Under the pieces are notes generated by a model that did no database searches, was not told where the DNA came from, and worked only from the letters and a program-made list of their open reading frames with translations. DNA of 64,000 nt, taken from NCBI GenBank assembly GCA_045638525.1, contig JAZUBQ010000012.1, forward strand, positions 162,094-226,093. Reading direction: 5' to 3'. The stretch is from Clostridia bacterium. GTDB lineage: Bacteria; Bacillota; Clostridia; UMGS1840. Position numbers and translations under genes: made by a program. Positions 3,880 through 63,288 of this stretch are shown here, in pieces. How positions within the stretch are numbered: the stretch's first letter is position 1; the number at the start of each line of letters is the position of its first letter.

Positions 3880-4074
3880 GGTTTTCCTCCATATCTATTC
3901 TTTTTCATTTACAAAATTGATTTGTGACAGAGTTTTCCGGAAACCTGTCTATAATTTGATATTTTATTATAACATAATAAAATCGTAAAGGAAAGAGTTT
4001 TTTGTAATTTTTTTTATTTTTTTGCATATTTTTTTTCATTTTTTCTAAAATTAACGACGAGGGAGGCATTTTTT

Positions 4075-5514: not shown

Positions 5515-5519
5515 GTGAA

Positions 5520-6185
5520 ATGATGAAGCGGTTTTTTTGTATATTCTTTTCCGTTCTGCTTGGAATTTTACTTCTGACAGGATGTGGTTACCAAGCAGAT
5601 GCCGAGCTTGGAAATGTCAATGTAGTCATTGGATTGTATCTGGATGTTTCCCCCGCTAATGGTCACTATATTTTAAAAGCAGAAATTGCAGATTTCAGCG
5701 AATACGAAAAATCGTCGGATATTTCAGCAAAAATACTGCAATCAGAGGGGACTTCCATTGCCGATGCTATGGCAAAACTGAATCAGATTTCAGATAAGGA
5801 ACTGTATTTTTCTCACGCAAAAATGATTCTGTTAGGAAGCGGTTTTCAATCTGTTGATATAGAAAATACCGTCGAGTATTTCACCCGTCACCCCCATATC
5901 AACTCCAACATACATCTTTGTATGTCTCAAAATGATTTATTATCAAAAAAAGAAGAAACATCGGATTCCGTTTTTCAGCCGCTCTGTTCTCTTTTAGAAC
6001 GTGATACCGAAACCGACTTCCCCACTCTTTATCAGTTATACCGAAAAGAAAATGCACAATTTTCTCTGCCTTTGGTAATCAAAACAGAGAACGGTGCTAT
6101 CATTTCATCGGCAATATTTTTTAATTATCATCATCAAATGACTGTTGACAATTTTCAATCATCTACTACAATGCAGGGAGGTTAA
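5520..6185 (+). CDS. Ger(x)C-like germination lipoprotein, unusually short (~221 aa)
   Basis: In-frame ATG at 5520 gives MMKRFFCIFFSVLLGILLLTGCGY with an LTGC lipobox. It sits between the A and B subunit genes. The region upstream of 5520 in the track ORF overlaps the A gene and is not counted. Confidence 0.6.
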   Translation: MMKRFFCIFFSVLLGILLLTGCGYQADAELGNVNVVIGLYLDVSPANGHYILKAEIADFSEYEKSSDISAKILQSEGTSIADAMAKLNQISDKELYFSHAKMILLGSGFQSVDIENTVEYFTRHPHINSNIHLCMSQNDLLSKKEETSDSVFQPLCSLLERDTETDFPTLYQLYRKENAQFSLPLVIKTENGAIISSAIFFNYHHQMTVDNFQSSTTMQGG

Positions 6186-6189
6186 TCCT

Positions 6190-33171: not shown

Positions 33172-35625
33172 ATGAAAAAAAGGATTTTAAGCTTACTGAT
33201 AACACTCTGTATGCTAACAAGCTTGTTTGGAGTTTTTTCCATCACCGTCCATGGAGCAAATGCACCGTCTGATTGGGCGCTGGCGGAAGTGAACACAGCA
33301 ATCACTGCGGGGTTGGTAACCGAAAAAGTAACAAGCGATTATCAAAAAGCAATTACCAGAGAAGAATTTTGCGAATTGGTAGTAAAGCTGTATGAAAAAC
33401 TCACAAACGAACAGGCTAACTTTAGCAACAACCCGTTCTCTGATACCGATAATACCGAAATTTTAAAAGCATATTCTTTAGGAATTGTAAAAGGTATTTC
33501 CGATACTGCATTTGCCCCAAATAACAACATAACAAGACAAGAATTATGCGTGATGCTCGTTCGTGCGATTGAGGCAATACTGGGTGACGAATTTATGCTA
33601 AAGTATGATTTTGTCAGCTTTCATGATGTAAAAGATATTGCAGATTGGGCGTTGGAGCAAATTTATTATTCTTATGAAAAAGGAATTGTAAAAGGTGTTG
33701 GAGAAAACAAATTTAACCCCCTTGGAACAGCTACTTGCGAACAAGCAATTATCATGGCGTGCAGATTATATCAAAATATTGAAAGCTGTAAAACAACAAT
33801 TCCCAAAGAAGTCATTGATCGCTATGAAAATTACACCTATATTAACAACACATTTTTAGAAATCGAAAAAAAATATACAAATGAAAGCGGGTATGTTCCC
33901 CCTGAAAAAATCGAAGCGTTGCTTGACGAAATATATACCGAAGCTCAAACGCTGCTTCGTAACGGAGAAATCACACAGGCACAGCTTAACAGAGACTTCT
34001 TAAACGTTTGTATTCTTTTAAAAGACGGAAGCGGATATCTCTATTCCCCTACAGTTGAAGGCTTGGCAAACACTCCACAAAAAACAACCGATATTATAGA
34101 AGTTGATAATTTTCGTTGGAATGATGTCGTTGTGCATAACAAAGCCGGAGACGTAGCTGCAGAAACATTCGATTTTTGTGACTATTCTTATATTGATACC
34201 ACCAAACAAAGCATCACTGCTTTAAAAGCAAAGCTTTCCTCTTTACGTCCCGATAAAAAATACATCTTATTCTGGCACGGACACGGAAGTGTTGAAACTT
34301 TACTCACACATCCCTTAAGCATACACGGATATGGTCCCCAACAATTTTATTCGGGCGTAACTTTTGGAATTCCAGAAGAAGCTTCTCTTAACACACAGTA
34401 TAAATTCCAAAATGATATTGAAGAACATCGCATCATATTTTTTAAAGATGCATACGGTCTGACTCCTGCATTTTTTGACACCTATATTCCAAAAATAAAA
34501 TCCGGACTTTTCTTTGCAGGCACTTGTTATTCTATGTGTGATAATGGTTTATTGGCAAATGTATTTTTAAACAAAGGATTTGACACCTACATCGGTTCCA
34601 ATCTGGCGGTACTTACCCAATATGCAAACGATATGATGAATTCCTTTGGGGATGCTTTATGCCTCCCTGAGGACTTAAAAAATTCAGAAACAATCCCTGC
34701 AGAAGAAGCCTTGAAAATTGCAAAAACAGCACAAGGTGCTACTGACGGAGATGTGGTAGAGAAAGTATATGAATTTATCTACCAGACAGATATTGCCTCC
34801 GGTGGAGAATTCCTGTTAAAAGGAGAGCCCAATTTCCGATTGGTTGATTACAATTTTAAAACAGTGGGAATAGACGGTGAACATTTTGGTTCCTCATTTT
34901 ATTACGTATCCGGTCATACTCTTTATCAGGAAAAAGACGGAAAACGAACAGCTGTTGCAGATGGCATTTACGGAACCAATGTTATCACCAATGGTAAGGA
35001 AGTATACTATGGCACCCAAGATTTAAATATCAAGCATAAAAATTTAAAAGATGGTACAGTTAAGACTGTCTATACAGAAATAGTTCCGGAAAACATTCAA
35101 TCAAAATGGTCATCCTATGACTACGACAACGAATTTTCTTTAAACGTTGTAGGAATTAACGAAAATCGCTTGTTTTTCTATCTTAGCCATACCGTGGGTG
35201 CAATTTATTTAAAAGGAATTGACTTATCAACTGCACAAACAATATTTTTGCGGGATGATTTGAAAGTGGAAAACGGCGAAATGGTAAATCATCAGTTGGT
35301 GGTATTTCCAACCAGACGCGATGTTTCTGCCAGTCTGAAACTGTGCGTCATCAACATGGATACACTGACAATCAATAATCTGGGAAATCTTTGTTTTTAT
35401 CAGCTAAAACCATACAAAAACGGTTTTTGCTATTGGGATGTTGCCTATTCCGACAGCAACTCCGATGCAACACTGATGTACCATAGCTTTGATACCAATC
35501 ACACAAGCAACATATTCCACGCAAACAATATTGATTTAGGTGGTTTCAGCTATGGAAAACATACCGCAACCTATTCATCCAAAAATAAAAACCACACCTT
35601 TGACTTAACAATGTTAATCAACTAA
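33172..35625 (+). CDS. SLH-domain cell-surface protein with a putative clan-CD (gingipain/caspase-like) cysteine peptidase domain and a C-terminal beta-rich domain
   Basis: 817 aa with a signal peptide and three SLH-like repeats (WALAEVNTAITAGLV.., FSDTDNTEILKAYSLGIVKG, FHDVKDIADWALEQIYYSYEKGIVKG). The candidate His and Cys motifs are ILFWHGHGS (nt 34261-34290) and LFFAGTCYSMCDNG...TYIGS (nt ~34510-34610). Confidence 0.65.
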   Translation: MKKRILSLLITLCMLTSLFGVFSITVHGANAPSDWALAEVNTAITAGLVTEKVTSDYQKAITREEFCELVVKLYEKLTNEQANFSNNPFSDTDNTEILKAYSLGIVKGISDTAFAPNNNITRQELCVMLVRAIEAILGDEFMLKYDFVSFHDVKDIADWALEQIYYSYEKGIVKGVGENKFNPLGTATCEQAIIMACRLYQNIESCKTTIPKEVIDRYENYTYINNTFLEIEKKYTNESGYVPPEKIEALLDEIYTEAQTLLRNGEITQAQLNRDFLNVCILLKDGSGYLYSPTVEGLANTPQKTTDIIEVDNFRWNDVVVHNKAGDVAAETFDFCDYSYIDTTKQSITALKAKLSSLRPDKKYILFWHGHGSVETLLTHPLSIHGYGPQQFYSGVTFGIPEEASLNTQYKFQNDIEEHRIIFFKDAYGLTPAFFDTYIPKIKSGLFFAGTCYSMCDNGLLANVFLNKGFDTYIGSNLAVLTQYANDMMNSFGDALCLPEDLKNSETIPAEEALKIAKTAQGATDGDVVEKVYEFIYQTDIASGGEFLLKGEPNFRLVDYNFKTVGIDGEHFGSSFYYVSGHTLYQEKDGKRTAVADGIYGTNVITNGKEVYYGTQDLNIKHKNLKDGTVKTVYTEIVPENIQSKWSSYDYDNEFSLNVVGINENRLFFYLSHTVGAIYLKGIDLSTAQTIFLRDDLKVENGEMVNHQLVVFPTRRDVSASLKLCVINMDTLTINNLGNLCFYQLKPYKNGFCYWDVAYSDSNSDATLMYHSFDTNHTSNIFHANNIDLGGFSYGKHTATYSSKNKNHTFDLTMLIN

Positions 35626-40100: not shown

Positions 40101-40766
40101 TTATAAATCCCAAGGTTTTTTATGAAACAACTGTACTCCGATTGCCTTTTTCTTTAAGTCATCGGGCAACGAATCCAAAAGTTTATTCCACACAAAAGTG
40201 TAGCGGTTGGGAAGATTGCACACTTTTGCAACCCGGTCGGTAATGTCTTCCCCTTCCAGAATGTCGGACAAGGTGGTTTCATAAGACAAATTTGTGGCAT
40301 TCGCCAATGCCGTTATTTGCAATCGGGAGGCTCTTTCAATATCCCCCTTGTACATTATAATACTTTCTTCATCTCTCGTCAAGGGTCTTTTTGTATTAAC
40401 CACCAGGAAAAAATCGTATTCTTCTTGTGAAAAATCGACAAAAAAACGACTTAACACAACAGCACCGTCATCATCCCCTGCCGCATCAAACACCACATAG
40501 GTATCTTTTTGGCTGAATGCCGCCATCATTTCAGGAGGAACGGAGGGAGTTTCAATATTGGTGTTTGCATAGGTGGGAGAAATCACATGGATCCCCAAAG
40601 CGTCCAATTCCTCCTTAGCATCTTTGGTTCGATAATAGGGATTGATTAAATCAATATCCACAATCATCACTTTTTCGTGCTCTTCTCTTAATTTTTTTGC
40701 ATAGGCTACGGCAGCTGTGGTTTTTCCGCTACCGTAATGACCCGCAAATATGGTAATTCGTTTCAT
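40101..40766 (-). CDS. P-loop NTPase of the MinD/CooC/ParA-like (SIMIBI) type, function unknown
   Basis: 221 aa with Walker A at the extreme N-terminus (IFAGHYGSGKTT) and a Walker-B-like VVFDAAGDDDG. Its start overlaps the upstream RseC-like gene stop by 4 nt. Confidence 0.6.
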   Translation of the reverse strand: MKRITIFAGHYGSGKTTAAVAYAKKLREEHEKVMIVDIDLINPYYRTKDAKEELDALGIHVISPTYANTNIETPSVPPEMMAAFSQKDTYVVFDAAGDDDGAVVLSRFFVDFSQEEYDFFLVVNTKRPLTRDEESIIMYKGDIERASRLQITALANATNLSYETTLSDILEGEDITDRVAKVCNLPNRYTFVWNKLLDSLPDDLKKKAIGVQLFHKKPWDL

Positions 40767-41167
40767 ATATTTCCTCTTTCGTTGGGTAGTAAAGTTGCTT
40801 TGGGCAATTTTAATTTCCGAAGTGCTATCACTATCATAACAAATGCCAGAATCCCTGCCAGAACAGCAGCCAATGAAGCCACAGTTTCAGGACAGAAACA
40901 GCTGAGCATCAGATATACCGCAAAAATGATGCAAAGTGGACAGACAAATACTAAAAAGGACAGTAAAAAATACCGATTTTTGGAAGTTTCCAACACCACA
41001 CGGTCTCCCACTTTGATTTCTTTCTCGCCTTCTGCCACAATTTGTGACGTGCCGGCACTGCAACTTCCGCAACTGTGACAGTTTCCGCCACACGCAGAAG
41101 CACGTTTGATTTCCACCAAAATCCGCTGATTTTCTAACTTTTGCACCACAGTTCCGATGGTTTTCAT
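40763..41167 (-). CDS. RseC/MucC-family (SoxR-reducing-system type) Cys-rich membrane protein
   Basis: 134 aa. The N-terminal domain has CGGNCHSCGSCS, followed by two TM helices. This layout is typical of RseC-family proteins. Confidence 0.65.
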   Translation of the reverse strand: MKTIGTVVQKLENQRILVEIKRASACGGNCHSCGSCSAGTSQIVAEGEKEIKVGDRVVLETSKNRYFLLSFLVFVCPLCIIFAVYLMLSCFCPETVASLAAVLAGILAFVMIVIALRKLKLPKATLLPNERGNI

Positions 41168-41168
41168 T

Positions 41169-42836
41169 TTAACACTCCTGTTTGAATTTTTTTGCCAATT
41201 CTAACATTTCATGAGCACTTTGACGTGTCAACTCAGTCACAGTTACTCCGCCTAACATACGGGCAAGTTCTTCTGTACGCATGGTATCTTCCACAACGCA
41301 TACTGAAGTCTTGGTTCCCAGCGTATCTTCCGTTTTGGAAACCACAATATGTTGGTCTGCCATTGCTGCAATCTGAGGCAAATGTGTAACACAAAGCACC
41401 TGAGAACCTTTTGTCCCATTGGCAATGGCACACATCTTTTCTCCGGTTTTTTGTGCAGCTCTTCCGCTTAACCCCGTATCAATTTCATCAAACACAAAGG
41501 CACACGCCGGGTCAATCCCCCGAAGAATGGATTTTAGCGCCAGATTCACTCTGGAAATTTCTCCACCGGATGCAATTTTAGACAAGGGAGCCGGTGGCAT
41601 TCCCGCATTTGCGGAAAATAAAAACTTCACCTGCTCTGCCCCGTATGCTCCATATTCATCCTCATGGACCAGTTCCACTAAAAAACGTGCGGAAGGCATC
41701 ATCAAATCTGAAAGTTCCGTTTCCAGAGCTTGTGCCAAACGAGGTGCCGCTTCTTCCCTTTGTTGGGTAAGCTTTTCTGCTAAAAGGGCAAGTTCTGTGC
41801 GAATTGTTTCTTTTTCCTGATATAGTTTAGAAACCAACGTTTCTCTGTTTTCTGTTTGATACAGCTGGGCTTTTGCGTTTTCCAAATAGGAAAGCACACT
41901 TTCAAATGTGCCGCCGTATTTCATTTTCAGCTGATAAATCACATTCAGCCGTTCTTCTATTTCATCTAAATTCTGATATTCACATTCAACCTGTTCGCTA
42001 TGATGACGAATGGTTTCTGACAGCTCGGAAATTTCATATTTCAAATCATACAGTCGTTCGGCAACGGCTTCCAATCCTTCAATATTTCGGACTGCTGTTT
42101 CTGCAAGAGAAAGATATTGATATGCGCTTTCCTCGTTTTCATACAGTGCATAAGTTGCAGCTTGAATATTCTGCTGATTTTTTTCCTGATTTTTCATCTG
42201 CAGTTTGATTTGCTTTAGGTTTTCTTCTTCCATAGGTTGCAAGTTAGCTCCCTCGATTTCCGAAACCACAAACCTTAGATAATCGACACGACTGTTATCC
42301 TGTTCATTTTTTTCTTCTAATTTGGAAATTTCGCCCAAAACATTCCGATAGTTCAGATAGCACTCCCGATAACTCTTAAAAAGTTCTTGATTTTCTGCAT
42401 AACGGTCCAAAAAACGGTAGTGAAGTTCTTCCCGGAACAAAATCTGATTATCATTTTGTGAATGAATACTGATTAAATAGGGTGAAAGTTCACGCAAAAT
42501 TGCTGTATTACAAAGACTGCCGTTTAATTTCACCACATTTCTGCCATCCCGAAAAATTTCACGGGAAATGATAAGCGAACCATCCATCAGATAAGACGAA
42601 AGAGCTTCCGGTTCGGTTGCATCCGAAAAGAAAAATTCTGCTTCCACCAACGTAGACTTTTCGTCAGCACGAATCATTTCTTTCGACATTCTTGCACCCA
42701 TTACCGCTTGCAAAGCATCCATCAAAATAGATTTCCCGGCACCGGTTTCACCGGTCAGCACAGTAAGACCTCGGTCAAAGTGAATCTCTGCTTCACGAAT
42801 AACCGCTAAATTTTTAATTAAAATGGTCGTTAGCAT
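41169..42836 (-). CDS. recN: DNA repair protein RecN
   Basis: 555 aa with Walker A GETGAGKSIL, a long coiled-coil middle section, and C-terminal SGGEISR and FDEIDTG motifs. Confidence 0.9.
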   Translation of the reverse strand: MLTTILIKNLAVIREAEIHFDRGLTVLTGETGAGKSILMDALQAVMGARMSKEMIRADEKSTLVEAEFFFSDATEPEALSSYLMDGSLIISREIFRDGRNVVKLNGSLCNTAILRELSPYLISIHSQNDNQILFREELHYRFLDRYAENQELFKSYRECYLNYRNVLGEISKLEEKNEQDNSRVDYLRFVVSEIEGANLQPMEEENLKQIKLQMKNQEKNQQNIQAATYALYENEESAYQYLSLAETAVRNIEGLEAVAERLYDLKYEISELSETIRHHSEQVECEYQNLDEIEERLNVIYQLKMKYGGTFESVLSYLENAKAQLYQTENRETLVSKLYQEKETIRTELALLAEKLTQQREEAAPRLAQALETELSDLMMPSARFLVELVHEDEYGAYGAEQVKFLFSANAGMPPAPLSKIASGGEISRVNLALKSILRGIDPACAFVFDEIDTGLSGRAAQKTGEKMCAIANGTKGSQVLCVTHLPQIAAMADQHIVVSKTEDTLGTKTSVCVVEDTMRTEELARMLGGVTVTELTRQSAHEMLELAKKFKQEC

Positions 42837-42891: not shown

Positions 42892-43341
42892 TTATAAGTG
42901 GGTTTTTAAGTATTGAGATACCCGTTCGGTCACTTCCGGACCACGACAAACCACCATAATGGTATCGTCGCCGGCAATCGTTCCCAAAATATCGTGATTT
43001 CCCAAATGGTCAATGGATGCAGCAATCCCTTGTGCCATTCCTACCGCAGTGTGAATGACTAAAATATTGACGCTTGCCTCCACCGATAAAATCATATTTT
43101 TGAAAAATCCAAGATGTGTACTGTTTTTCCCGGCATGAAACTCAGCTCTGGGAGCACAATAACAAATCTCACCATTTTCATCAGTTGTTTTCACAATTTT
43201 TAATTCCTTAATATCGCGGGAAATGGTTGCCTGCGTTACCGTATAGCCCATTTGAATTAACCGTTCGGTCAAATCCTCCTGGGTTCTGATTTTTTCCCGA
43301 CGAATCAAAGACAGTAAGTCATCTTGTCTTCTTTTTTTCAT
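42892..43341 (-). CDS. argR: Arginine repressor
   Basis: 149 aa with an N-terminal winged-helix region (QEDLTERLIQMGYTVTQATISRDIKEL) and the C-terminal GTIAGDDTI motif. Confidence 0.9.
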   Translation of the reverse strand: MKKRRQDDLLSLIRREKIRTQEDLTERLIQMGYTVTQATISRDIKELKIVKTTDENGEICYCAPRAEFHAGKNSTHLGFFKNMILSVEASVNILVIHTAVGMAQGIAASIDHLGNHDILGTIAGDDTIMVVCRGPEVTERVSQYLKTHL

Positions 43342-43355
43342 AACAAAAACCTCTC

Positions 43356-44186
43356 TTAGAGTTTATCTTTTAAAACAGAATAAAAATTTCGATTCACAAT
43401 CCGAACCAATTTGGTGGTATGCTCGGATAAACGGATGGTAAGTTCCATCTCAGGATTTATGGTGACAGCCTCGTTTCCATCATAAGATAAAAACGAAATA
43501 TTTTCTGTTCCCTCTTTTTGCTTCACCGTGATGGTTCGATTTTTACAAATAATCATAGGTCGACTGGTCAATGTATGAGGACAGATGGGGGTTACCGCAA
43601 AGGCTTCTGTCAATGGGTCAATCACCGCTCCGCCTGCTGACAGAGAATACGCTGTGGACCCTGTTGGAGTTGACACAATCAAACCATCGGCACGAATGGG
43701 TGTGCACAGTGCGTTGTCAATGTAAAATTCCATTTCCAGCATTTTCGCAAAATTCCCACGGGATAATGCAATTTCATTCAAAGCGGTGAATCGATGTTTT
43801 TCTCCTGTTTTATCGGTTACCACAGCCGACAGCATCATTCGTTCGTCAATGGAATATTCTCCTGTAAAAATATGACGCACCAAATCCATTTCGTCTTGTT
43901 CTAAATCAGTCAAAAGACCAACCCGACCAAAATTGATGCCCAAAATCGGAATATCATATTGGGATGCAGACTGAGCCACACGAAGCAACGTTCCGTCGCC
44001 TCCCAACACAATCACCATTTCAACGGTTTTATAAAACTCATCCGAAGAAAGCATATTTGCAACATTGCCCATTCCGCTATCACAAGGAAAATACACACAA
44101 GCTCCGTTTTCTTCCAACAATGAAATCAATCGTGTAATCACAGAGACATCAATATTCGATTTTCCGCTCACAATTCCTATGTTCAT
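43356..44186 (-). CDS. nadK: NAD kinase
   Basis: Start taken at the ATG at 44186 (MNIGIV..). Motifs are GGDGTLL, NFGRVGLL and STPTGSTAYSLSAGG. Confidence 0.9.
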   Translation of the reverse strand: MNIGIVSGKSNIDVSVITRLISLLEENGACVYFPCDSGMGNVANMLSSDEFYKTVEMVIVLGGDGTLLRVAQSASQYDIPILGINFGRVGLLTDLEQDEMDLVRHIFTGEYSIDERMMLSAVVTDKTGEKHRFTALNEIALSRGNFAKMLEMEFYIDNALCTPIRADGLIVSTPTGSTAYSLSAGGAVIDPLTEAFAVTPICPHTLTSRPMIICKNRTITVKQKEGTENISFLSYDGNEAVTINPEMELTIRLSEHTTKLVRIVNRNFYSVLKDKL

Positions 44187-44199
44187 ACGATCCCTCGTT

Positions 44200-44997
44200 T
44201 TAGTCCAATGTGGTATGGGACTGTTCTGTAATTTCTTTTGCTTTGGCAAGATAATCCATTGAAGGCTCTTGCCGTTTTGTCATATATAATAAGTATTCAA
44301 TATTTCCTTCCGGTCCCTTGATGGGAGAAAAATCCAAATCCAGCAAAGTAAGTCCTTTGGCTTGCATTTGCTCACAAACTTTCACAATCACATCGTGATG
44401 CACCTTTTTATCCTTCACCACGCCTTTTTTGCCCACAAATTCTCTGCCTGCTTCAAACTGCGGTTTGATTAACACCATAAGCTCTGCAGAATCACTCAGC
44501 AAATCTACCACGGTAGATAAGGCGGTATTTAAAGAAATAAATGCCACATCGGCGGATAAAAAGTCTGCCCGTTCCGGAATTTCTTTTTCGGTGAGGTAGC
44601 GGGCGTTGGTTCTCTCTAATACCACCACACGCTCATCACTTCGGAGTTTCCAGTCCAACTGACCGTATCCCACATCCACCGCATAGACTTTTTTCGCTCC
44701 GTTTTGAAGCATACAGTCTGTAAAACCACCGGTAGACGCACCAATATCTACACAAATTTTATTTTTTAAATCAATTCCAAACACTTTAACCCCTTTGTCC
44801 AGCTTATAACCTCCGCGTGATACAAACGGAAGGTCTTCTTTCACCGTAAGGGTTTGTGTGTCTTCAATCATTTCGCCTGCTTTATATGCCTTTTGTCCAT
44901 CTACATATACCTGCCCTGCCATGATAAGCGCTTTCGCCTTCTCACGGGAAGCAGCAAGTCCCTGTTCGGTCAAGGCTACATCCAGTCTTATTTTCAA
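44200..44997 (-). CDS. tlyA: TlyA-family rRNA 2'-O-methyltransferase
   Basis: 265 aa with an S4 domain (RLDVALTEQGLAASREKAKALIMAGQV) and an FtsJ-like DIGASTGGFTD motif. Confidence 0.9.
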   Translation of the reverse strand: MKIRLDVALTEQGLAASREKAKALIMAGQVYVDGQKAYKAGEMIEDTQTLTVKEDLPFVSRGGYKLDKGVKVFGIDLKNKICVDIGASTGGFTDCMLQNGAKKVYAVDVGYGQLDWKLRSDERVVVLERTNARYLTEKEIPERADFLSADVAFISLNTALSTVVDLLSDSAELMVLIKPQFEAGREFVGKKGVVKDKKVHHDVIVKVCEQMQAKGLTLLDLDFSPIKGPEGNIEYLLYMTKRQEPSMDYLAKAKEITEQSHTTLD

Positions 44998-46850
44998 CGG
45001 AAAAACTCCTCCATAATTTTTTCAGCCACGCTTTCTCCATCCATTTTCAACAAAGAAAGCAACTCCTCAACACTACCGTGAGGAACATAACAATCGGGAA
45101 CCGAAACCGAAAGCAACGGCAATGCAGTGAATCCCGATAACATTGAGTAAATGCCGCCATATCGACTGGCACTTTCCATCACAACACCACGTTTGGTCTT
45201 TTGCAAAGAAGTTGCAATGGTATCAAAATCCAAAGGTTTTATATATCGCAAATTGATAAGTTCAGCCGAAACCCCTTGCTCTTTTAACATTTGGGTGGCT
45301 TTCAGACCTTCCGAAATCATTGTTCCGTCGCAGAAAATACTCACGTGTTTTCCGGGAACTAAAATCTGTGCTTTTCCCGGTTGATATTTCTGCTCCAATT
45401 TCGCAACTTCCGGATCCTCCGTACCTTTGGGATATCGAATGGCACAAGGAGAATCATAATCGTTAATCGCTTCTTTTAACATAAAGTCCAAATCATGATA
45501 AGTTGCCGGAGAAAACACAGTCATATTCGGCATGGAAGTCAGATAAGAAATGTCAAAAATCCCCTGATGTGTTTCTCCATCCTCTCCCACAATTCCGGCA
45601 CGATCCACTGCAAATACACAATGCAGATTCATGCCGCAAACATCGGTAAGGAGCTGGTCGTATGCCCGCTGTAAGAAAGAAGAATATACAGCGAATACCG
45701 GAACCATGCCGGAAATGGACAATCCTGCCGCCAGCCCTGCTCCGTGAGCTTCCGCTATGGCAACATCATAATAACGTTCAGGAAATTTATAACGAAAATC
45801 GCTTAATCCGGTGCCATCCGGCATTGCAGCAGTAATCGCAACAATTTTTTTATTTTCCGCTGCCATTGTTTCCAAAGTGGTACCAAAGGCTTTGGAAAAA
45901 TTCTTGTGGTTTTCTGCCGAAATTCCCACTTTGACATCAAAAGGTTTCACTCCGTGGAACAAATCCGGTCGTTCTTCCGCAAAAGAGTATCCTTTGCCTT
46001 TCTTGGTAAGTACGTGAATCACCATCGGCTTGTCCACATCTTTTAACTGTTCAAACACCTTGCATAACCCTTTGACATCATGTCCGTCAAACGGACCTGC
46101 ATAATAAAAACCTAATTCTTCAAATATATTGCTTCCGAACATCATATTGCGAAAGCCTGTTTTAAAATCAGAAATGGCATTGTATAAATGAGAACCCAGC
46201 CACGGGATTTTGGAAAAGACAGTGGAAACCGTTCCTTTTGTGCGTAAGTAAAGTGGGCTTGTTCGCATTTTTGCCAAGTGATGAGAAATCCCACCCACAT
46301 TTTCCGAAATGCTCATTTCATTATCGTTTAATATCACGATGATGTTATTTTTTTCTCTGCCGGCATCATTCATCGCCTCAATCGCCATTCCGCCGGTCAA
46401 AGCACCGTCCCCAATCATGGCAATCACGTGAGAATTGTCTCCTTGTTGCTCCAGTCCTCGTTTTAACCCAAGTGCCACCGAAATGGAATTGGAACTGTGA
46501 CCGGAATGAAACGTATCAAATTCACTTTCAGTTCGTTTGGGGAAACCGGAAATCCCATTTAATTTTCGCAAATTAGCAAAGCCTTCTGCACGACCTGTCA
46601 GAATCTTATGAACATAGCTTTGATGCCCCACATCAAAAATGATTTTATCATCCGGAAACGAAAAAGACTTATGAAGTGCAACCGTTAACTCTACAGCGCC
46701 TAAATTAGATGCCAGATGCCCCCCGGTTTGGGAAACAGAATCCAACAAAAACTCCCGAATTTCTGTGCAGAGTGTTTCCAATTCGGAGACAGACATATTC
46801 TTGATATTTTGATAGTTTTTTGTTTTTTCAAACAATTTCTGATGTTTCAC
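44994..46850 (-). CDS. dxs: 1-deoxy-D-xylulose-5-phosphate synthase
   Basis: 618 aa with GGHLASNLGAVELTVALH, the TPP motif GDGALTGGMAIEA, and DVAIAEAHG. Confidence 0.95.
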   Translation of the reverse strand: MKHQKLFEKTKNYQNIKNMSVSELETLCTEIREFLLDSVSQTGGHLASNLGAVELTVALHKSFSFPDDKIIFDVGHQSYVHKILTGRAEGFANLRKLNGISGFPKRTESEFDTFHSGHSSNSISVALGLKRGLEQQGDNSHVIAMIGDGALTGGMAIEAMNDAGREKNNIIVILNDNEMSISENVGGISHHLAKMRTSPLYLRTKGTVSTVFSKIPWLGSHLYNAISDFKTGFRNMMFGSNIFEELGFYYAGPFDGHDVKGLCKVFEQLKDVDKPMVIHVLTKKGKGYSFAEERPDLFHGVKPFDVKVGISAENHKNFSKAFGTTLETMAAENKKIVAITAAMPDGTGLSDFRYKFPERYYDVAIAEAHGAGLAAGLSISGMVPVFAVYSSFLQRAYDQLLTDVCGMNLHCVFAVDRAGIVGEDGETHQGIFDISYLTSMPNMTVFSPATYHDLDFMLKEAINDYDSPCAIRYPKGTEDPEVAKLEQKYQPGKAQILVPGKHVSIFCDGTMISEGLKATQMLKEQGVSAELINLRYIKPLDFDTIATSLQKTKRGVVMESASRYGGIYSMLSGFTALPLLSVSVPDCYVPHGSVEELLSLLKMDGESVAEKIMEEFFR

Positions 46851-46892
46851 GGCGTTTTTCTCCGTTCTTTTTCACTTTTTATCGGTAACGAT

Positions 46893-47501
46893 TTATTGTT
46901 TCTTCTGAAATAATAAACCGATGTTTTTCATATAATAGGCAATTTTTCCAACCAAAAACACAATCTTTTCTGCATTTTTGATGGCATATTTCTTTCCGGC
47001 AGCCTTTCCGCCAACCGTCAATGCGGCAACCAATGCCGACAACAAACTTAAAATAATAAACTCTCCGAATTGAGGATTACTGTCTACAAACAAACCTTTT
47101 AACATTGTCAAAAAATACACACCGATTGTTGTTCCGGTTGCACCACTGACAATTCCGGCAATATCTCCGATAACATCGTTAAAGATATTGGTTGCTTTTT
47201 CTGCATTTTTAAGGAGTACCAACGCTTCTTTGGCACCTCCGATTTTCCTTGCCGCCATGGCATTTAAAGTTTTTTCATCTGCAGTAGCAATGGCAATCCC
47301 TGCCATATCAGCAACAATCCCCACCAAAACAATGAGAACAAGTACCAAAAGTGCAGGAAGCAAACTTAAATTTTTGGATAATACATCGGCAAACATCCCC
47401 ATAAAAAAAGCAATTAAAAAGGTGATAATGGTAATTTTAACTGCCCAATTCATCGGTTTTCTCTGTCGCTTGGGAATGTCGTCTTTTTTATTGGATTCCA
47501 T
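46893..47501 (-). CDS. oapA: Four-TM membrane protein in the position of OapA (OLE-associated protein A)
   Basis: 202 aa with a basic N-terminus (KKDDIPKRQRKP) and four hydrophobic helices. It lies directly between the ORF-free structured region and dxs, as published for oapA. The call rests on context only. Confidence 0.55.
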   Translation of the reverse strand: MESNKKDDIPKRQRKPMNWAVKITIITFLIAFFMGMFADVLSKNLSLLPALLVLVLIVLVGIVADMAGIAIATADEKTLNAMAARKIGGAKEALVLLKNAEKATNIFNDVIGDIAGIVSGATGTTIGVYFLTMLKGLFVDSNPQFGEFIILSLLSALVAALTVGGKAAGKKYAIKNAEKIVFLVGKIAYYMKNIGLLFQKKQ

Positions 47502-47550
47502 AAGTTACTCCATCAATTTTTTTAATATTTATTATCATTCTATCCCATTG

Positions 47551-47579
47551 ATTGTACTCTGCAATCTTATCTTTTTCAA
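47551..47579 (-). promoter_or_regulatory. Possible sigma-A promoter for the oapA-like gene
   Basis: Minus strand reads TTGAAA (47579-47574), a 17-nt spacer, then TACAAT (47556-47551). Confidence 0.4.
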
Positions 47580-47649
47580 ATTAAAAAAGTTCTAAAATTG
47601 TAAAATAGAATGGAACATTATAGTTCAAACTCTGATATGATTCTTTAAA

Positions 47650-48400
47650 AATTTGTAAAATCGACTTGGACATTTGATGTTCGTGGAGAAAATTTTTAAA
47701 CAAGAGTGAGTGAAAAGCACAAAGAATACTTTTTGTATTCCCAAGCATTTTCGCACGCTATGGCTAAAAATTACCTACGAAAAGCAAGTGGACAAGTCCA
47801 TTTTACAATTCAAATAAGTAGCGTGGCAGAACCGGAGTAAATTCTGCGGCTTAGGTCGAGTTGGATTTCCCGAAAAGCTACTCCTTGTCGCCAATGGAGC
47901 GATTTCTCTTAAAAACTTTTCCGATAAAGTCGCCAAACTATCGCACTCGATCGCCACTGAGTCCGCACTGCAATCCTCCGGTGCTATTCTGTCTAGTGGT
48001 TTTCCCAAACAACATTTGTGCTATTTAATCCTGTTTTGCAAACAGAGTTTCAACCGGCGATAACTTCCTTGGATAGGCCTACTCCAAAAAAAGTCTGATC
48101 CGAATCTCCCCTCATATTCACTCAAGGCAAGCTACTCTGCACACAGCAATCCAAATCAATGTCATACCGCAATTGCAGGTTTAATCCTGAACCGTAGAAG
48201 GAAGCTTGTGTCGATTAAGTCACAGAATATTCCGACCACGAGGACAGGTCTCCACGGAAATAGGGTTGTTGCCGCTATGCCATTAACTGCCGCCCCATAA
48301 CCTTAACTCCCAGCATCCGCCCCGGACTGGGCGTCCAAAGCAAACACAAGAAACTTCATCGATATGCTCTTTAACGGATTTTTAGGCCCGTCTTCAATAA
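47650..48400 (-). ncRNA. ole: Large structured non-coding RNA, probably OLE (ornate, large, extremophilic) RNA; the ends are approximate
   Basis: The 940-nt gap has no credible ORF. Hand-counted GC is 52-53% per 60-nt line, against 13% for a normal intergenic line. It holds many local and long-range helices. The flanking gene order ispA/PAP2 ... oapA-like/dxs/tlyA/nadK/argR/recN matches the published OLE operon. No covariance model was run. Confidence 0.6.
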
Positions 48401-48440
48401 CACATAGTTGACTAGAATACAGCGCCACAATATAAAATAA

Positions 48441-48896
48441 CTATATTATGATAACAGAAAAACAAATTCCAATCACAATTCCAAGCAATGCACCAACCAG
48501 CACTTCCGGCTTGGTATGTCCAATCAATTCTTTTAATTCCTGATCGATATGGAATTCTTGTTTTTCAAACTTTTTGATAATTCGATTTAAAATTTTTGCC
48601 TGTTCTCCTGCTTCCTTTCTGACGCCTGCAGCATCATACATCACAATCACTGCAAATGCCACCGTTATCGCAAACAACGGCGTATCAAAACCGTATTGCA
48701 ACCCCACACAAGTTCCCAAGGTACACACCGAAGAAGAATGTGAACTGGGCATTCCGCCGGAACCGATGCAACGAGTCCAATCCAGTTGCTTGTGCATCCA
48801 ATAATGAAGCGGAATTTTTAGTAACTGTGCCAATATGCAGGAAAACACTGTCGCCCACAGAATATTGTTGGAAAAAATTTCTCCAAAACTGTGCAA
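48441..48896 (-). CDS. Divergent PAP2-family membrane protein (YuiD-like)
   Basis: 151 aa, polytopic, with GGMPSSHSS and YDAAGVR motifs characteristic of the divergent PAP2 / acid-phosphatase-related family. Confidence 0.7.
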   Translation of the reverse strand: MHSFGEIFSNNILWATVFSCILAQLLKIPLHYWMHKQLDWTRCIGSGGMPSSHSSSVCTLGTCVGLQYGFDTPLFAITVAFAVIVMYDAAGVRKEAGEQAKILNRIIKKFEKQEFHIDQELKELIGHTKPEVLVGALLGIVIGICFSVIII

Positions 48897-48914
48897 AAGC
48901 GATTCCTCCCAATG

Positions 48915-49802
48915 TTAATAATTTCGATTCACCAAAAATAAGGTTAAATCTTTTAAAAACAAAACGGCTTCCTGGTTTTTTATCGATTGAGCCACCATCT
49001 CCAATAAAGAAATGGCTTTATTCTCATATTCTTGCAGAAGTTCTTTACATCGCTTCAATCCATACTCTGAAACAAACGTAATCTTCATATTTTTTTCATC
49101 ACTTAAAATGGGTTTCCCTAATGTTTCGGCATCAGAGGTGACATCTAAAACATCATCCTGAATCTGAAACATCAGACCAATGGTATCTGCATATTGTTCC
49201 AAAAGAGCCAGAGTTTCTTTCTTAGCTCCTCCTAAAATAGCACCAACTGCCACACTTGCCTTTAACAGAGCTCCTGTTTTCTGGCTATACATCAAAGAAA
49301 GCGAATCAAAATCGGTTACCGACTGTTCCATATCTGTCATCTGACCGGCACACATCCCTTTCGCACCGGAAGCAGTTGTGATATATTGCATTGCCTCCAT
49401 TGCACGCTCTGCCGGAAAATGATTGGCATATTTCAACATAGTTTCCATACTCAGATTTAACAGTGCATCTCCTGCCAGAACTGCTCCGAACTCAGAAAAA
49501 CGTTTGTGACAGGTAGGTTTCCCTCTTCGCAAATCGTCATCATCCATACAAGGCAAATCGTCATGGACTAAAGAATAGCTGTGAATCATTTCCATCGCCG
49601 CAGCATAAGGAACTGCTTTTGTAATATCCGATTCAAACAATTCAAACACACCAAGCATGAAAACGGGACGCAAACGTTTTCCGCCGTTCATAACGGCATA
49701 TTCCATAATTTCACGAAGATTCTTTTGAGGAGAACACTGTTTTAGTTCTTCCTGTAAAAATGCTTCTATCAGAAAGACTTTTTGTTCCATTTTTTCTTTC
49801 AT
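48915..49802 (-). CDS. ispA: Polyprenyl (farnesyl/geranylgeranyl) diphosphate synthase
   Basis: Start taken at the ATG at 49802, abutting the xseB stop. The two Asp-rich motifs are LVHDDLPCMDDDDLRRG and FQIQDDVLD. Confidence 0.9.
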   Translation of the reverse strand: MKEKMEQKVFLIEAFLQEELKQCSPQKNLREIMEYAVMNGGKRLRPVFMLGVFELFESDITKAVPYAAAMEMIHSYSLVHDDLPCMDDDDLRRGKPTCHKRFSEFGAVLAGDALLNLSMETMLKYANHFPAERAMEAMQYITTASGAKGMCAGQMTDMEQSVTDFDSLSLMYSQKTGALLKASVAVGAILGGAKKETLALLEQYADTIGLMFQIQDDVLDVTSDAETLGKPILSDEKNMKITFVSEYGLKRCKELLQEYENKAISLLEMVAQSIKNQEAVLFLKDLTLFLVNRNY

Positions 49803-49803
49803 A

Positions 49804-50046
49804 TTATACACCGGTTGCTTCCTTTGTTTCAAAATCAACAGCAGTCACCTGCCCGTTTTCTTCGGTAATCATTTTGATTTTGGATTCCGCTTCATCTAAA
49901 ATTTTCTGAAGCTCACGGGAAAGTTTGGTTCCTTCGGTGAAGAGTTCCATCGCATCTTCCAATGCAACAGAGCCTTTTTCCAACCCCAACACAATTTCTT
50001 CCAGACGTTTCATTCCGTCTTCAAATGTAATCTTTTTTTCTTCCAT
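49804..50046 (-). CDS. xseB: Exodeoxyribonuclease VII small subunit
   Basis: 80 aa containing FEDGMKRLEEIVLGLEKGSVALEDAMELFTEG, a typical XseB sequence. Confidence 0.9.
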   Translation of the reverse strand: MEEKKITFEDGMKRLEEIVLGLEKGSVALEDAMELFTEGTKLSRELQKILDEAESKIKMITEENGQVTAVDFETKEATGV

Positions 50047-50049
50047 AGT

Positions 50050-51261
50050 TTATTCCTCTCCGGCTTGTTCTGAAGTCTTAACGTCACAAACCTCGCAGTC
50101 CAAAGTACCGTCTGCCAAAGTGACAAATAGCCGATCTCCTGTTTGAACTTCCTTAACAGAAGATACGGGATTTCCGTCTGCATTTTGGGCAACCGAGTAA
50201 CCTCGCTGTAAAATCTTCAACGGACTTAACGCATCAAGTTTGGAAATATTTTTCACAAACTGTTCTTTTCCTGCCTGAAGCTTGCTCCGATAAAGATTCT
50301 CAAGCTTCATTCCGTAAGAATCAATCTGCAAACGTTTGACATTGTATACTGCCATAGGATTTTTCAGCACTTCTCTTTGCGACAGCATTGTGTAGGATTT
50401 GCGGGATTTTTCAAGACTACCAACCAATGCTCCATACAGCCGTCCATCCACCATTTTTAAAAACTTTGTCAAATCCGTCGCAGATGGAACTGCAATTTCA
50501 GCCGCCGCTGACGGAGTGGGAACCCGTCGGTCTGCCACAAAATCGGCAATGGTAAAATCGGTTTCGTGTCCTACTGCAGAAATAACGGGCGTCACCATGG
50601 AAGCAATCTGTCTTGCAACCACTTCTTCGTTAAATGCCCATAAATCTTCAATAGAACCGCCGCCGCGACCGGTAATCACCGTGTCTACCTTACCATCAAA
50701 AAAACGAAGCCCTTTGACAATAGACTGCGCCGCTCCCTCCCCCTGGACCAATGCGGGATACAAATAAACCCGTGTATACGGAAAACGCCGTTTTAACACG
50801 TTTAAAATATCACGAATGGCAGCACCGGTGGGAGACGTGACAATCCCGATGGTTTCGGGATATTTAGGAATTGGCTTCTTTCGTTCAGGAGAAAACAATC
50901 CCTCTGCTTCCAGTTTTGCTTTCAGCTGTTCGTATGCCACATATAAAGCACCGACACCGTCAGGCATCATTTCATCAATATAAATCTGATATTGTCCATC
51001 TCTTTCATACAAAGAAACTTTACCGGTCACAACCACCTGCATCCCGTTTTCGGGACGAAACACAAGTTTTTGTGCACTAAAGCGGAACATCACCGCACGA
51101 ATGACACCGCCATCATCCTTTAAGGACAAATACAAATGCCCGGAAGAATGATGTTTAAAATTGGAGATTTCCCCCTTCACGGTGACTCTTTGAAGCAAAC
51201 TATCCCGCTCGATAAGATTCTTTATGTATAAATTCAATTCTGTAATGGTAAGAACATCCAT
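50050..51261 (-). CDS. xseA: Exodeoxyribonuclease VII large subunit
   Basis: Start taken at the ATG at 51261 (MDVLTITELNLYIKNLIE). It has an OB-fold N-terminus and the motifs RGGGSIEDLWAFNEE and SAVGHETD. Confidence 0.9.
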   Translation of the reverse strand: MDVLTITELNLYIKNLIERDSLLQRVTVKGEISNFKHHSSGHLYLSLKDDGGVIRAVMFRFSAQKLVFRPENGMQVVVTGKVSLYERDGQYQIYIDEMMPDGVGALYVAYEQLKAKLEAEGLFSPERKKPIPKYPETIGIVTSPTGAAIRDILNVLKRRFPYTRVYLYPALVQGEGAAQSIVKGLRFFDGKVDTVITGRGGGSIEDLWAFNEEVVARQIASMVTPVISAVGHETDFTIADFVADRRVPTPSAAAEIAVPSATDLTKFLKMVDGRLYGALVGSLEKSRKSYTMLSQREVLKNPMAVYNVKRLQIDSYGMKLENLYRSKLQAGKEQFVKNISKLDALSPLKILQRGYSVAQNADGNPVSSVKEVQTGDRLFVTLADGTLDCEVCDVKTSEQAGEE

Positions 51262-51274
51262 AGCGAATCCTTTA

Positions 51275-51670
51275 TTATTTTCCTCTGGCAACAGAGCCAA
51301 GCACTCCATTCACAAAGGCCTTTGATTTTTCATCTTCATAGGTTGCTGCAATTTCCATTGCTTCCGAAATGGCAACTCCATCCGGGATATCTTCATCAAA
51401 CATGATTTCGTATACGCCCAGACGCATTACCGCCAAAGAAACTTTAGAAATACGGTCAAAAGTATACCCTTTGACATTTTCTTGAATCAAGCTGTCAATT
51501 TCCGCCAAACGGGAAAAGATTTTTTCCACCTTTTCACCAATCTGACGAAGGTCTTTTCCTTTGATTTCATTATCCGAACAATAATGTTCAAATCCACCCT
51601 CGGGCAAAGCTCCTTCATATCCGGAAAACAACAGTTTAAAAATATGTTCTCTTACTTCTCGTCTTTTCAT
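51275..51670 (-). CDS. nusB: Transcription antitermination factor NusB
   Basis: 131 aa starting MKRREVREHIFKLLF and containing AVMRLGVYEI. Confidence 0.85.
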   Translation of the reverse strand: MKRREVREHIFKLLFSGYEGALPEGGFEHYCSDNEIKGKDLRQIGEKVEKIFSRLAEIDSLIQENVKGYTFDRISKVSLAVMRLGVYEIMFDEDIPDGVAISEAMEIAATYEDEKSKAFVNGVLGSVARGK

Positions 51671-51681
51671 ATCTTTATTCC

Positions 51682-52041
51682 TTATTGGTCAACTTCGGAA
51701 AAGTCAACGCCCACCACAATGACATTAACAGATTTCAGCGGAAAACCAATCATATTTTCCAATGAATCTTTCACTTTAAGTTGAACTTCTCTTGCAACCT
51801 CATCCACCTGATAGCCATATTTTACCACCAGATTCAACGTCACGGTCATTTCATCATTTTTGGTTTCCACAGAAATTCCGCGGCTAAGCATTTTTTTAGA
51901 ATACACGGTGCTGTCGGTATCTTCTGCTAACGAAGCCACACCTTCAATTTCATTAACCGCCATTCCGGAAATCACAGAAATTACTTCTGTGCTGACTTTA
52001 ATTTCGCCTTTCGTGTTGTTGGTTAAGATGTTTTCTTCCAT
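51682..52041 (-). CDS. Asp23/Gls24-family envelope stress protein
   Basis: Start taken at the ATG at 52041 (MEENILTN..). KGEIKVSTEVISVISGMAVNEIEGVA is typical of Asp23-family proteins. Confidence 0.8.
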   Translation of the reverse strand: MEENILTNNTKGEIKVSTEVISVISGMAVNEIEGVASLAEDTDSTVYSKKMLSRGISVETKNDEMTVTLNLVVKYGYQVDEVAREVQLKVKDSLENMIGFPLKSVNVIVVGVDFSEVDQ

Positions 52042-52353
52042 CCTGAGCCCATCCTTTCTATCAATCATTTTTATGTTTTCTAAAAAATCGGATAAAGAAT
52101 CCGAGTCTACTTATATAGTATATCATATCCCTCTGTATAATTCAAACATTTTTTGAATATTTCTTGAATTTTTTTTGATTTTTATGTATTTTTTTCAAAT
52201 TACCGGTTATTTTCAGAAAAAAGAGCCGAAAAAGAATAAATTTTGGTAAGATTTTCTTGGTAAAACGGTTATAATAATTCAAAAATTGTAAAACATAAAA
52301 AGAGAAATTAAAAAATATTCATCACACGATGAATAAAAGAGGCAGGGATTACT

Positions 52354-62124: not shown

Positions 62125-63288
62125 ATGAAACAAATCATTTCTTACATAATTCTGTTAACAACCATTTGCACCATCACGGCAAACGCTGTCTCATACACCG
62201 ATATGACTTCCTCACACGATTGGGCAAAAGAAGCGATCGAACAACTCACCAATCAAAAGATTTTTGAAGGCTATCCCGACGGAAGCTTTCAACCGGACAG
62301 AAATATTACCCGGGCAGAACTTTGCAAGCTGATTATTCTGTTGTTCGGCAACGGCAACACAGTCTCCTACAGCGATGTAGCAACCGATCAATGGTATTAT
62401 GATAACATCTCCAAAAGCGGCGGCTATTTTCTGACAGAAGAAACCTTCTCACCCGAACGCTCCGCCACCCGTGAAGAAGTGGCGTATGCAGTCTATGCGG
62501 GAATGAACCTCACGGAATCCCCCACCGACAAATCCATTTCTTTCAAAGATCAAAAAGATATTACACTCCAATATCTGGAGGCTGTCAAAAAGCTGACACA
62601 AAACGGTATCTTAACAGGATATCCTGACGAAACATTCCGTCCGACTTCCAACATTACACGGGCTGAAACTGCCGCTGTATTGTACAGAAGTTTGCAAAAG
62701 CTACAAAACAAAGATAACGAAGAAGAATCTTCCGATCCCTCTCTTCAATCAAGAAACTACTTTTTCATCATAACCAAAGTATCTACTGTTTTGGATGAAG
62801 ATGGTGAATTATCAACCAAAGTGACCGGTTATCAGGACGGTAACCTCTGCGAACTGATAATCCCGGATAATGCCACCATTGACCGAAGTGAATTTTCACG
62901 CGGAACCACTCTGAAACCTGGAGATTTGATTGACTATTACCGAACCGCTTCCGGAAGAATCAATCGTGTCAGCGTTGGTCTCAATTTATCAGAACTCCCC
63001 CAATATTACGGTATCAACCTGCTGAAAATCGGTAATACTACCGTAAGAAGGGTTGTTTACGGAACAGTGCTTGAACGTTATAAAAAAGGAATTGAGCTGA
63101 AAGCAATCAACGGTTCAGCGAAAATGCTCTATAACTTATCTGAAAACCCCATTGTTTATCTTTGGAAAAACAATAAACTGCAGTTAAGTGACATTAACGA
63201 AATTCAAGACAGTCGCTACGAAACCGGAGATACCGTCCTTGCCTACTGCTACGAAGATACCCTTTCTACGTTTATTATCATAAAATAA
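62125..63288 (+). CDS. SLH-domain cell-surface protein
   Basis: 387 aa with a signal peptide. The SLH repeats are WAKEAIEQLTNQKIFEGYPDGSFQPDRNITRAELCKL, YSDVATDQWYY and FKDQKDITLQYLEAVKKLTQNGILTGYPDETFRPTSNITRAE. Confidence 0.75.
   Translation: MKQIISYIILLTTICTITANAVSYTDMTSSHDWAKEAIEQLTNQKIFEGYPDGSFQPDRNITRAELCKLIILLFGNGNTVSYSDVATDQWYYDNISKSGGYFLTEETFSPERSATREEVAYAVYAGMNLTESPTDKSISFKDQKDITLQYLEAVKKLTQNGILTGYPDETFRPTSNITRAETAAVLYRSLQKLQNKDNEEESSDPSLQSRNYFFIITKVSTVLDEDGELSTKVTGYQDGNLCELIIPDNATIDRSEFSRGTTLKPGDLIDYYRTASGRINRVSVGLNLSELPQYYGINLLKIGNTTVRRVVYGTVLERYKKGIELKAINGSAKMLYNLSENPIVYLWKNNKLQLSDINEIQDSRYETGDTVLAYCYEDTLSTFIIIK

Follow-up and report, generated by a model that had tools for sequence, protein, structure and literature searches.

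A full-length OLE RNA with its membrane-protein partner

The window, the 64-kb stretch of DNA analysed here, almost certainly carries a full-length OLE (ornate, large, extremophilic) RNA on its minus strand at 47807-48444, with the gene for the membrane partner of this RNA, OapA, lying downstream at 46893-47501 (probability of roughly 0.97). An earlier note, drawn up from the letters of the DNA, had proposed an OLE-class RNA on the minus strand, and a scan with the Rfam covariance models bears this out: RF01071 (OLE) matches from 48444 to 47807 with 415.3 bits and an E-value of 1.4e-118, the gathering score of the family being 50 bits. The match covers model positions 1-616 of 616 and is not truncated, and it is the sole Rfam match in the window. 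A permissive Rfam scan of 46800-49000 likewise returned no family other than OLE at E<=1. Within the full extent of the match, the structured core occupies 47823-48428 (minus strand) and is delimited by the closing helix P1, in which GUGGC (48428-48424) pairs with GCCAC (47827-47823) to enclose a length of 606 nt. The interval originally put forward, 47650-48400, does have OLE within it, but clips 44 nt from the 5' end of the RNA and takes in approximately 157 nt (47650-47806) of another element, which is considered below.

OLE lies in a gap of 939 nt (47502-48440) between oapA and the gene for a DUF212 ('divergent PAP2') membrane protein (48441-48896, minus strand; PF02681, E 3.7e-50), the stop codon of which is 12 nt before P1. 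Such a gap might also be nothing more than the untranslated leader of the membrane-protein gene, or might conceal a small protein gene, and minus-strand ORFs of 77 aa (47775-48008) and 55 aa (47581-47748) are present. These are, however, the only ORFs in the gap; both fall within the structured RNA or the repeat and have no Pfam match, and the covariance-model score and the covariation of paired columns are those of a structured RNA, leaving a leader or a small protein gene with a negligible chance. The original claim that the gap holds no credible ORF therefore stands.

The G+C content is 45% in OLE as compared with 29% in the 305 nt that separate ole from oapA, and the hand counts of the earlier note, 31/60 for 47821-47880 and 32/60 for 48241-48300 against 8/60 for 3961-4020, proved exact. 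Two example helices, CCCAG...CTGGG (48309-48331) and CTGTTT-TGC-AAACAG (48031-48045), are present in the sequence, but neither forms in the real fold. In the P5 hairpin, CCCAG occupies the terminal loop and CTGGG is the partner of the 5' strand; in P9, CTGTTT and AAACAG each serve as a 3' strand. The duplication of TTTAATCCTG, at 48024-48033 and 48180-48189, was correctly reported. Despite the wrong example helices, the arguments made from composition and gene context were sound.

OLE ranks among the largest bacterial RNAs of unknown chemistry, and every correct call is for this reason a useful annotation. The call in the window is correct yet not new, the copy being an ordinary full-length member of a curated Rfam family in a common form of its gene cluster, and it adds little to a class for which there are already an Rfam entry, records from ~2,800 Bacillota genomes and partial cryo-EM structures. 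GOLLD, ROOL and the raiA motif resemble OLE in being large non-coding RNAs with elaborate structures and unknown chemistry, and some of them self-assemble; the Rfam scans of the window and of 46800-49000 gave no sequence or structure-model match to any of the three. To our knowledge, a dedicated membrane-protein partner is found only for OLE among the large, ornate bacterial RNAs.

Fold, covariation and conserved motifs

OLE sequences for comparison were gathered independently, through loci encoding homologues of the neighbouring membrane protein. Seventeen loci were obtained, six from ruminant-gut Clostridia assemblies and 11 more distant, including Halanaerobiaceae, Keratinibaculum and Radiobacillus, and the alignment holds 14 OLE sequences that are 56-95% identical to the window copy. 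The secondary structure is that of the family model rather than one deduced from the alignment; transferred onto the window copy, it gives standard pairs at 135 of the 153 consensus pairs and non-standard ones at 18. A check of covariation across the 14 sequences also came out in favour of OLE, with 87.7% of the cells paired, as compared with 74.5% in column shuffles (0/500 reached the observed value) and 39-46% in slid controls, in which the partners were moved by 1-3 columns. Changes on both sides of a pair, which are compensatory, were present in 90 pairs, against 33-53 in the slid controls.

Three long-range helices that are missing from the Rfam structure line, namely the terminal P1, a UCUAGU/ACUAGA helix and the helix enclosing the 5' domain, are all in the published models, and are 84.6% paired in the alignment as compared with 28-48% in controls; the count for P1 is partial, because MAFFT shifts its 3' strand in the distant sequences. 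P1 varies in concert across relatives (GUGAC/GUCAC, ACGGC/GCCGU, GUGGU/ACCAC), and a swap of CUG/CAG for CAG/CUG separates the clade of the window from the distant sequences. Invariant positions make up 194 of 638 (30%) across the 14 sequences, and strictly conserved nucleotides are given as ~25% of OLE in the literature.

Several of the conserved elements correspond to sites that have been characterised in other OLE RNAs. The P4 hairpin (48373-48392, minus strand; helix name mapped by order) has an A-rich loop, CCUAAAAAUCC, the columns of which are invariant in 14/14 sequences, and in cryo-EM structures this loop forms an A-A dimer bridge (PMC12286853, PMC12265935). The long P9 arm (48029-48128, minus strand) ends in the self-complementary loop UAGGCCUA. 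Self-complementarity of the loop core holds throughout the 14 sequences despite changes in the bases themselves (GGCC, GGUACC, GGGCCC and GGAUCC), and the P9 loop has been shown by cryo-EM to be a kissing-loop dimer contact (PMC12286853, PMC12265935). A loop that varies and yet stays self-complementary fits a putative contact of this kind in the window RNA. The strands of the putative kink turn for OapC, J4a/5 (AUCGAUGAAG) and J6/7 (GUGGAGAC), are invariant in 14/14 sequences.

In the 3' domain, which corresponds to the published P11-P15 region (47828-47985, minus strand), pairing in helices 12-18 reaches 81-100%, and compensatory changes are numerous. Two hairpins of this domain are capped by GCGA, one at the P13 position (47922-47943) and one at the P14.1 position (47881-47900). 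In H. halodurans, OapB recognises P13, which has a GNRA loop and a bulge of one nucleotide that binding requires (PMC7936274). At the P13 position of the window RNA, a G-C pair closes the GCGA loop, but two U.U mismatches in the upper stem take the place of a clear bulge; because this upper stem is irregular, a putative OapB site there is uncertain.

Relation to other OLE RNAs

OLE has been reported in 2,822 GTDB Bacillota genomes, and shortened variants of the RNA are known from two gut clades with reduced genomes, TANB77 and RF39 (PMC11332333). The P7, P8 and P9 arms of the window RNA are long, and it is therefore of the 'full-length' type and not one of the shortened variants 1 and 2. Its P7 and P8 loops contain 19 and 12 extra nucleotides, respectively.

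The region could also be seen as a decaying, non-functional remnant of OLE, given that it scores lower than distant copies (415 versus 496-524 bits), is without one 4-bp hairpin of the Rfam consensus (model positions ~425-436) and has its 18 non-standard consensus pairs. Nevertheless, the match is full length with 194 invariant positions, the OLE helices keep compensatory changes within the clade, and oapA is intact and retains all of the invariant residues. Moreover, the same 4-bp-hairpin deletion is common to six sister species, which score 423-439 bits, marking it as a trait of the lineage and not as decay. A decaying remnant is thus very improbable, and the window copy is better regarded as an intact member of the family.

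Compared with the studied OLE RNAs of Halalkalibacterium halodurans, Clostridium acetobutylicum and C. botulinum, the window copy is alike in its helices, its invariant loops, its oapA neighbour and its location in an isoprenoid/DNA-repair cluster. It differs from them in the missing 4-bp hairpin, in the longer P7 and P8 loops, and in having an internal loop at the P13 position instead of a clear single bulge. The locus also differs, with a repeat-bearing spacer of 305 nt before oapA and DUF212 immediately upstream of the RNA.

The OapA gene

The gene at 46893-47501 (minus strand) encodes a protein of 202 aa and is a true oapA, the gene of the OLE-associated membrane protein. The earlier note had likened the gene order around this four-helix neighbour to the context reported for OLE and OapA, and the assignment as OapA is upheld by a DxxxD motif, four helices, a CNNM-like fold and the presence of OLE directly upstream of the gene in 17/17 loci encoding homologues. 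Searches of the protein against Pfam and NCBIfam gave no match, PF01595 not being matched at its default threshold, and a sequence search of OapA and of DUF212 against solved structures returned nothing significant. There are 706 homologues of the protein, and in 24 of these 18 residues are invariant, including D109 and D113 (D109-V-I-G-D113, the DxxxD motif) and an LTVGGKAxGK block.

An AlphaFold2 model of OapA (pLDDT 81.6) has long helices at residues 17-44, 47-73, 100-133 and 143-175. A crude hydropathy scan flags three segments only, because the helix that bears DxxxD is less hydrophobic. The top six PDB matches of the model are transmembrane domains of CNNM/CorB/CorC proteins, 7M1T, 7M1U, 7CFF and 7CFG among them, with probabilities of 0.99-1.00 and TM-scores of 0.45-0.58. 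The window protein therefore has a transmembrane-domain fold in common with the CNNM-family Mg2+ transporters MpfA, CorB and CorC, but unlike these it is without CBS or CorC domains and has a fourth helix and the DxxxD motif. This motif sets OapA apart from true CNNM domains (PMC11332333), and the substitutions D100A/D104A in OapA of H. halodurans result in a dominant-negative phenotype (PMC11332333, PMC9723947). The likeness to H. halodurans OapA extends to DxxxD, the four long helices, a basic C-terminal region, the place downstream of ole and the CNNM/CorB-like predicted fold (PMC11332333), although the window protein shares only ~40% identity with the homologues from Bacillaceae aligned here.

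A possible role for OLE and OapA

The steps outlined here are inferred from work on OLE of H. halodurans and Clostridium. In other species, OLE is abundant, ~600 nt in length and membrane-localised, and it dimerises and is bound by OapA dimers; in one model, the P3 stems cross the bilayer. It also binds OapB at the GNRA-capped P13, OapC at a kink turn and the ribosomal protein bS21, and cells require it to tolerate alcohols, cold, raised Mg2+ and poor carbon sources (PMC12265935, PMC7936274, PMC9723947, PMC12054373, PMC10898510). By analogy, an OLE RNA of ~600 nt would arise in the window organism as part of the cluster transcript, by initiation at a promoter immediately before it, or in both ways. 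Two domains would form in the folded RNA, a 5' one of P3-P9 and another of P1, P2 and P10-P15, and the RNA might dimerise through the A-rich loop of P4, the loops of P5 and P6 and the self-complementary loop of P9. A dimer of the four-helix, CNNM-like OapA would then bind OLE and hold the RNA at, and possibly through, the cell membrane. Together with OapB at a GNRA hairpin, OapC at the kink turn and bS21, OLE may form a particle that would help cells to withstand alcohol, cold, excess Mg2+ and poor carbon sources.

A relative of a mobile element in the ole-oapA spacer

The spacer between ole and oapA contains a long imperfect hairpin of ~155 nt (47648-47808, minus strand), with the inverted ends AAATTGTAAAAT and ATTTTACAAATT and a central stem-loop of GGGAAUAC-AAAAA-GUAUUC. 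It folds at -45.7 kcal/mol (z -3.98) and is followed by a partial second copy of its 3' end (AATGTTCCATTCTATTTTACAATTTT; 47594-47619, minus strand), which is 81% identical to 47649-47674. The 305-nt spacer is specific to the clade, and its hairpin is read here as a passenger insertion related to a miniature mobile element (MITE), and not as part of OLE. The hairpin was not flagged by a terminator scan and was rejected as an intrinsic terminator, and no Rfam family matches it in the permissive scan of 46800-49000.

The same hairpin is found at the same place in six sister loci (L001-L006) and in one metagenome contig, the remaining spacer being unalignable, and the sister loci carry between one and three copies of it, arranged in tandem every ~160 nt. 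It is single-copy in the window and confined to the ole-oapA spacer in the 12-kb sister loci, and among the matches listed, which span the window and ~1.2 Mb of loci, there are no dispersed copies of this subtype away from the ole-oapA spacer. At the ends of the hairpin there is no target-site duplication, the flanks being unmatched in 7/7 loci (for example TTTG/TTTA and TATA/TTTG).

A pattern for the 39-nt core of the hairpin has a far wider distribution, occurring in at least 120 metagenome contigs and 17 viral contigs, and OLE is present in only 1/137 of the core-pattern loci among the matches listed. The other core-pattern loci (L014-L150) contain an element of 172 bp with the terminal inverted repeats GGCAATACCGCACAAAG. 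Exact 4-bp duplications, which vary in sequence, flank 52 of 79 copies of this element, and the inverted repeats and duplications together identify it as a bona fide MITE, common in gut metagenomes. An apparent likeness of the MITE to 'lactis-plasmid' RNA was discarded as a match at the level of chance (22 bits against a threshold of 70).

The hairpin and the MITE share the core AAAATRC..GAATACA..A.GTATTC..GYTTTT, and both are long imperfect palindromes with inverted ends and a bias in stability towards one strand. However, only the central 50-85 nt are held in common. The ends of the hairpin (AAATTGTAAAAT) differ from those of the MITE (GGCAATACCGCACAAAG), the hairpin has no recognisable target duplication, and, among the matches listed, it is seen solely at the ole-oapA spacer, with tandem arrays in the sister genomes. 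In our reading, an ancestor of the clade acquired a relative of the MITE between ole and oapA, and this was later duplicated in tandem.

Alternatively, the RNA may run on to ~47650, with the hairpin serving as a clade-specific extra 3' domain of OLE or as a processing or stability element for the ole-oapA transcript. The hairpin begins directly after OLE, within 2 nt of the end of the match, and its position and orientation are constant in 8/8 clade loci; it is far better conserved than the remainder of the spacer, 19 of its 56 pairs have compensatory changes, and among the matches listed this subtype occurs only beside OLE. Weighing against such an extension are the sharing of its central sequence with a dispersed element, nearly all copies of which are far from OLE, its copy number of one to three in tandem, and its absence from 11/11 OLE loci outside the clade. 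In addition, 8/8 copies of the hairpin are more stable, by ~16 kcal/mol on average, when folded from the strand that does not encode OLE, and the dispersed family behaves alike, the strand opposite the OLE orientation being favoured in 48/48 copies by a mean of 12 kcal/mol. The hairpin was accordingly downgraded as an OLE-specific domain, its core being widespread and accompanied by OLE in a single case, and a longer RNA is considered unlikely.

A passenger insertion is thus the preferred reading of the hairpin. Since the hairpin is well conserved and, among the loci compared, confined to a single location, there is nevertheless some room for a retained role. With an outside chance, it could be a captured relative of a mobile element that has been kept for a purpose, as a signal for dsRNA processing, stability or insulation, in a shared transcript or in an antisense one, from which it folds better, that sets the OLE:OapA ratio. 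If this were true, the hairpin would be a clade-specific accessory part of the OLE system. As an element kept by one ruminant-gut clade, it could in any case offer a natural handle on the balance of ole and oapA products.

Promoters, host and gene cluster

The spacer of 305 nt in the window compares with 24-169 nt, or no spacer at all, in loci outside the clade. In most of these distant loci it is 24-86 nt, and co-expression of ole and oapA is for this reason less certain in the window. Promoter-like sites in the region are not above shuffle expectation in their total count. The best of them, with a 10/12 consensus match, is TTGAAA, a 17-nt spacer and TACAAT at 47551-47579 (minus strand), located 50 nt upstream of the oapA start codon and proposed from its consensus match only. 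A weaker candidate, TTGGAA, a 16-nt spacer and CATAAT at 48445-48472 (minus strand; 9/12, again a consensus match only), overlaps the last codons of DUF212 and lies 17 nt upstream of P1; a -10-like box is found at the equivalent place in the sister loci. In distant OLE loci, clear promoters of the extended -10 type precede P1 by ~12-19 nt, and these OLE genes thus appear to own a strong promoter-like site at a fixed distance from P1.

The window contains a gerA-type germinant receptor operon and spoIVA, together with genes for pyruvate formate-lyase and 2-oxoacid:ferredoxin oxidoreductase, and its closest relatives are Clostridia known from metagenome assemblies of the ruminant gut. As originally supposed, the host is a spore-forming member of the Clostridia; it is anaerobic, and falls within the anaerobic or extremophilic Bacillota expected for OLE. 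Neither oapB (KOW domain) nor oapC (L7Ae family) was found in the 64-kb window, where 56 of 65 candidate ORFs were scanned and the other nine are all <60 aa, too short for either. This is expected, because the ole clusters of the model species do not include these genes. From published correlations, oapB (ybzG) and oapC (ybxF) would lie elsewhere in the genome, and mpfA would be lacking.

Pfam and NCBIfam matches confirm the gene order read from the sequence at the outset, from nusB to recN; with asp23 ahead of nusB, the order on the minus strand is asp23-nusB-xseA-xseB-ispA-DUF212-gap-oapA-dxs-tlyA-nadK-argR-recN, without folD. Upstream of DUF212 are ispA (48915-49838), xseB (49804-50046), xseA (50050-51309), nusB (51275-51670) and asp23 (51682-52068); downstream of oapA are dxs (44994-46850), the gene of a tlyA-type methyltransferase (44200-44997), nadK (43356-44249), argR (42892-43341) and recN (41169-42836), all on the minus strand.

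The earlier description of this cluster as a variant operon was overstated. DUF212 is located between ispA and OLE in 12/18 loci, comprising the clade of the window and five other lineages, and folD is present in only two loci among the 18 examined; the window cluster is thus of a common type. The order ispA-DUF212-ole-oapA recurs in several Clostridia lineages and sets the gene of a lipid-phosphatase-like membrane protein against ole. No account of a link between DUF212 and OLE was found in a literature search that missed the papers likeliest to list the neighbours of ole. As a minor observation on the cluster, a TsaD-like gene often stands in the place of folD.

Features of OLE and its putative promoter

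Nine of 14 OLE sequences, those of the window's clade together with two from more distant loci, L010 and L011, lack the 4-bp hairpin of Rfam model positions ~425-436. In the OLE RNA of the window (47807-48444, minus strand) the site of the missing hairpin lies at ~47985-47990, with CUAGACAG on one side and the 3'-domain helix on the other. Extra nucleotides are present in the OLE loops of P7 (+19) and P8 (+12). In distant OLE genes, a clear consensus promoter whose -10 box is extended (TGnTATAAT-like) lies ~12-19 nt upstream of P1 (L007 ~4340-4390, L008 ~4300-4350, L009 ~4280-4330, L012 ~830-875 and L013 ~4210-4260), and the presence of this box suggests that OLE has a promoter of its own besides read-through of the cluster.

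The hairpin repeat and the 172-bp MITE family

A conserved palindromic hairpin of ~155-160 nt is found directly 3' of OLE in the window (47648-47808, minus strand), in the sister loci from ruminant-gut Clostridia, L001-L006, and in the metagenome contig L065 (188-427); OLE loci from other clades lack it. The sister genomes carry one to three copies in tandem, with repeats at L001 5452-5931, L003 5444-5924, L005 1095-1409 and L006 5161-5521, and the hairpin at L002 5762-5922 and L004 5556-5716. Compensatory changes occur in 19 of 56 hairpin pairs. In a single sister genome, L006, the ole-oapA spacer reaches 840 nt and, past the hairpin repeats (~5640-5990), there appears to be an additional small hydrophobic ORF, with a GGAGG site 5' of it.

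The 172-bp MITE family, with inverted ends GGCAATACCGCACAAAG, is widespread among the matches listed (L014-L150), in human-gut metagenome contigs and 17 IMG/VR viral contigs; examples are L024 4834-5005 and L038 4823-4994. Also among the matches listed, 52 of 79 copies have exact 4-bp target duplications, and one strand folds better than the other by 4-19 kcal/mol in all 48 distinct copies. The MITE matches no Rfam family.

Gene neighbourhood of OLE

Between ispA and OLE, 12 of the 18 OLE loci, spread over several Clostridia lineages, encode a DUF212 ('divergent PAP2') membrane protein (window 48441-48896, L010 3607-4056, L013 3677-4138, L151 2800-3246, L152 2915-3358, L154 3001-3435), and no mention of DUF212 as an OLE neighbour was found in the accessible OLE literature.

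Several OLE clusters carry a TsaD-like gene immediately 5' of xseA (L008 1017-1967, L151 1-434, L152 1-535, L153 187-1110, L154 1-633), in the slot held by folD in L009; nusB precedes it where nusB is in view (L008, L153). The window cluster extends downstream beyond recN to include a gene of the RseC/MucC family and a small P-loop gene of ParA/MinD-like type (40101-41167), whereas in L008 recN is followed by spoIVB and spo0A.

Host features elsewhere in the window

Three proteins (window 27169-31668, 33172-35625 and 62125-63288) are without a family match over most of their lengths: one, of 1,499 aa, carries a single M23 peptidase domain, and the other two have S-layer homology domains. The host is a spore former, since the window holds spoIVA as well as an operon for a gerA-type germinant receptor comprising GerA, GerAC-like and spore permease genes (4075-7290 and 25537-27006). 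In that operon the GerAC-like ORF, 248 aa long, runs into the genes on either side, and these overlaps may be start-codon miscalls.
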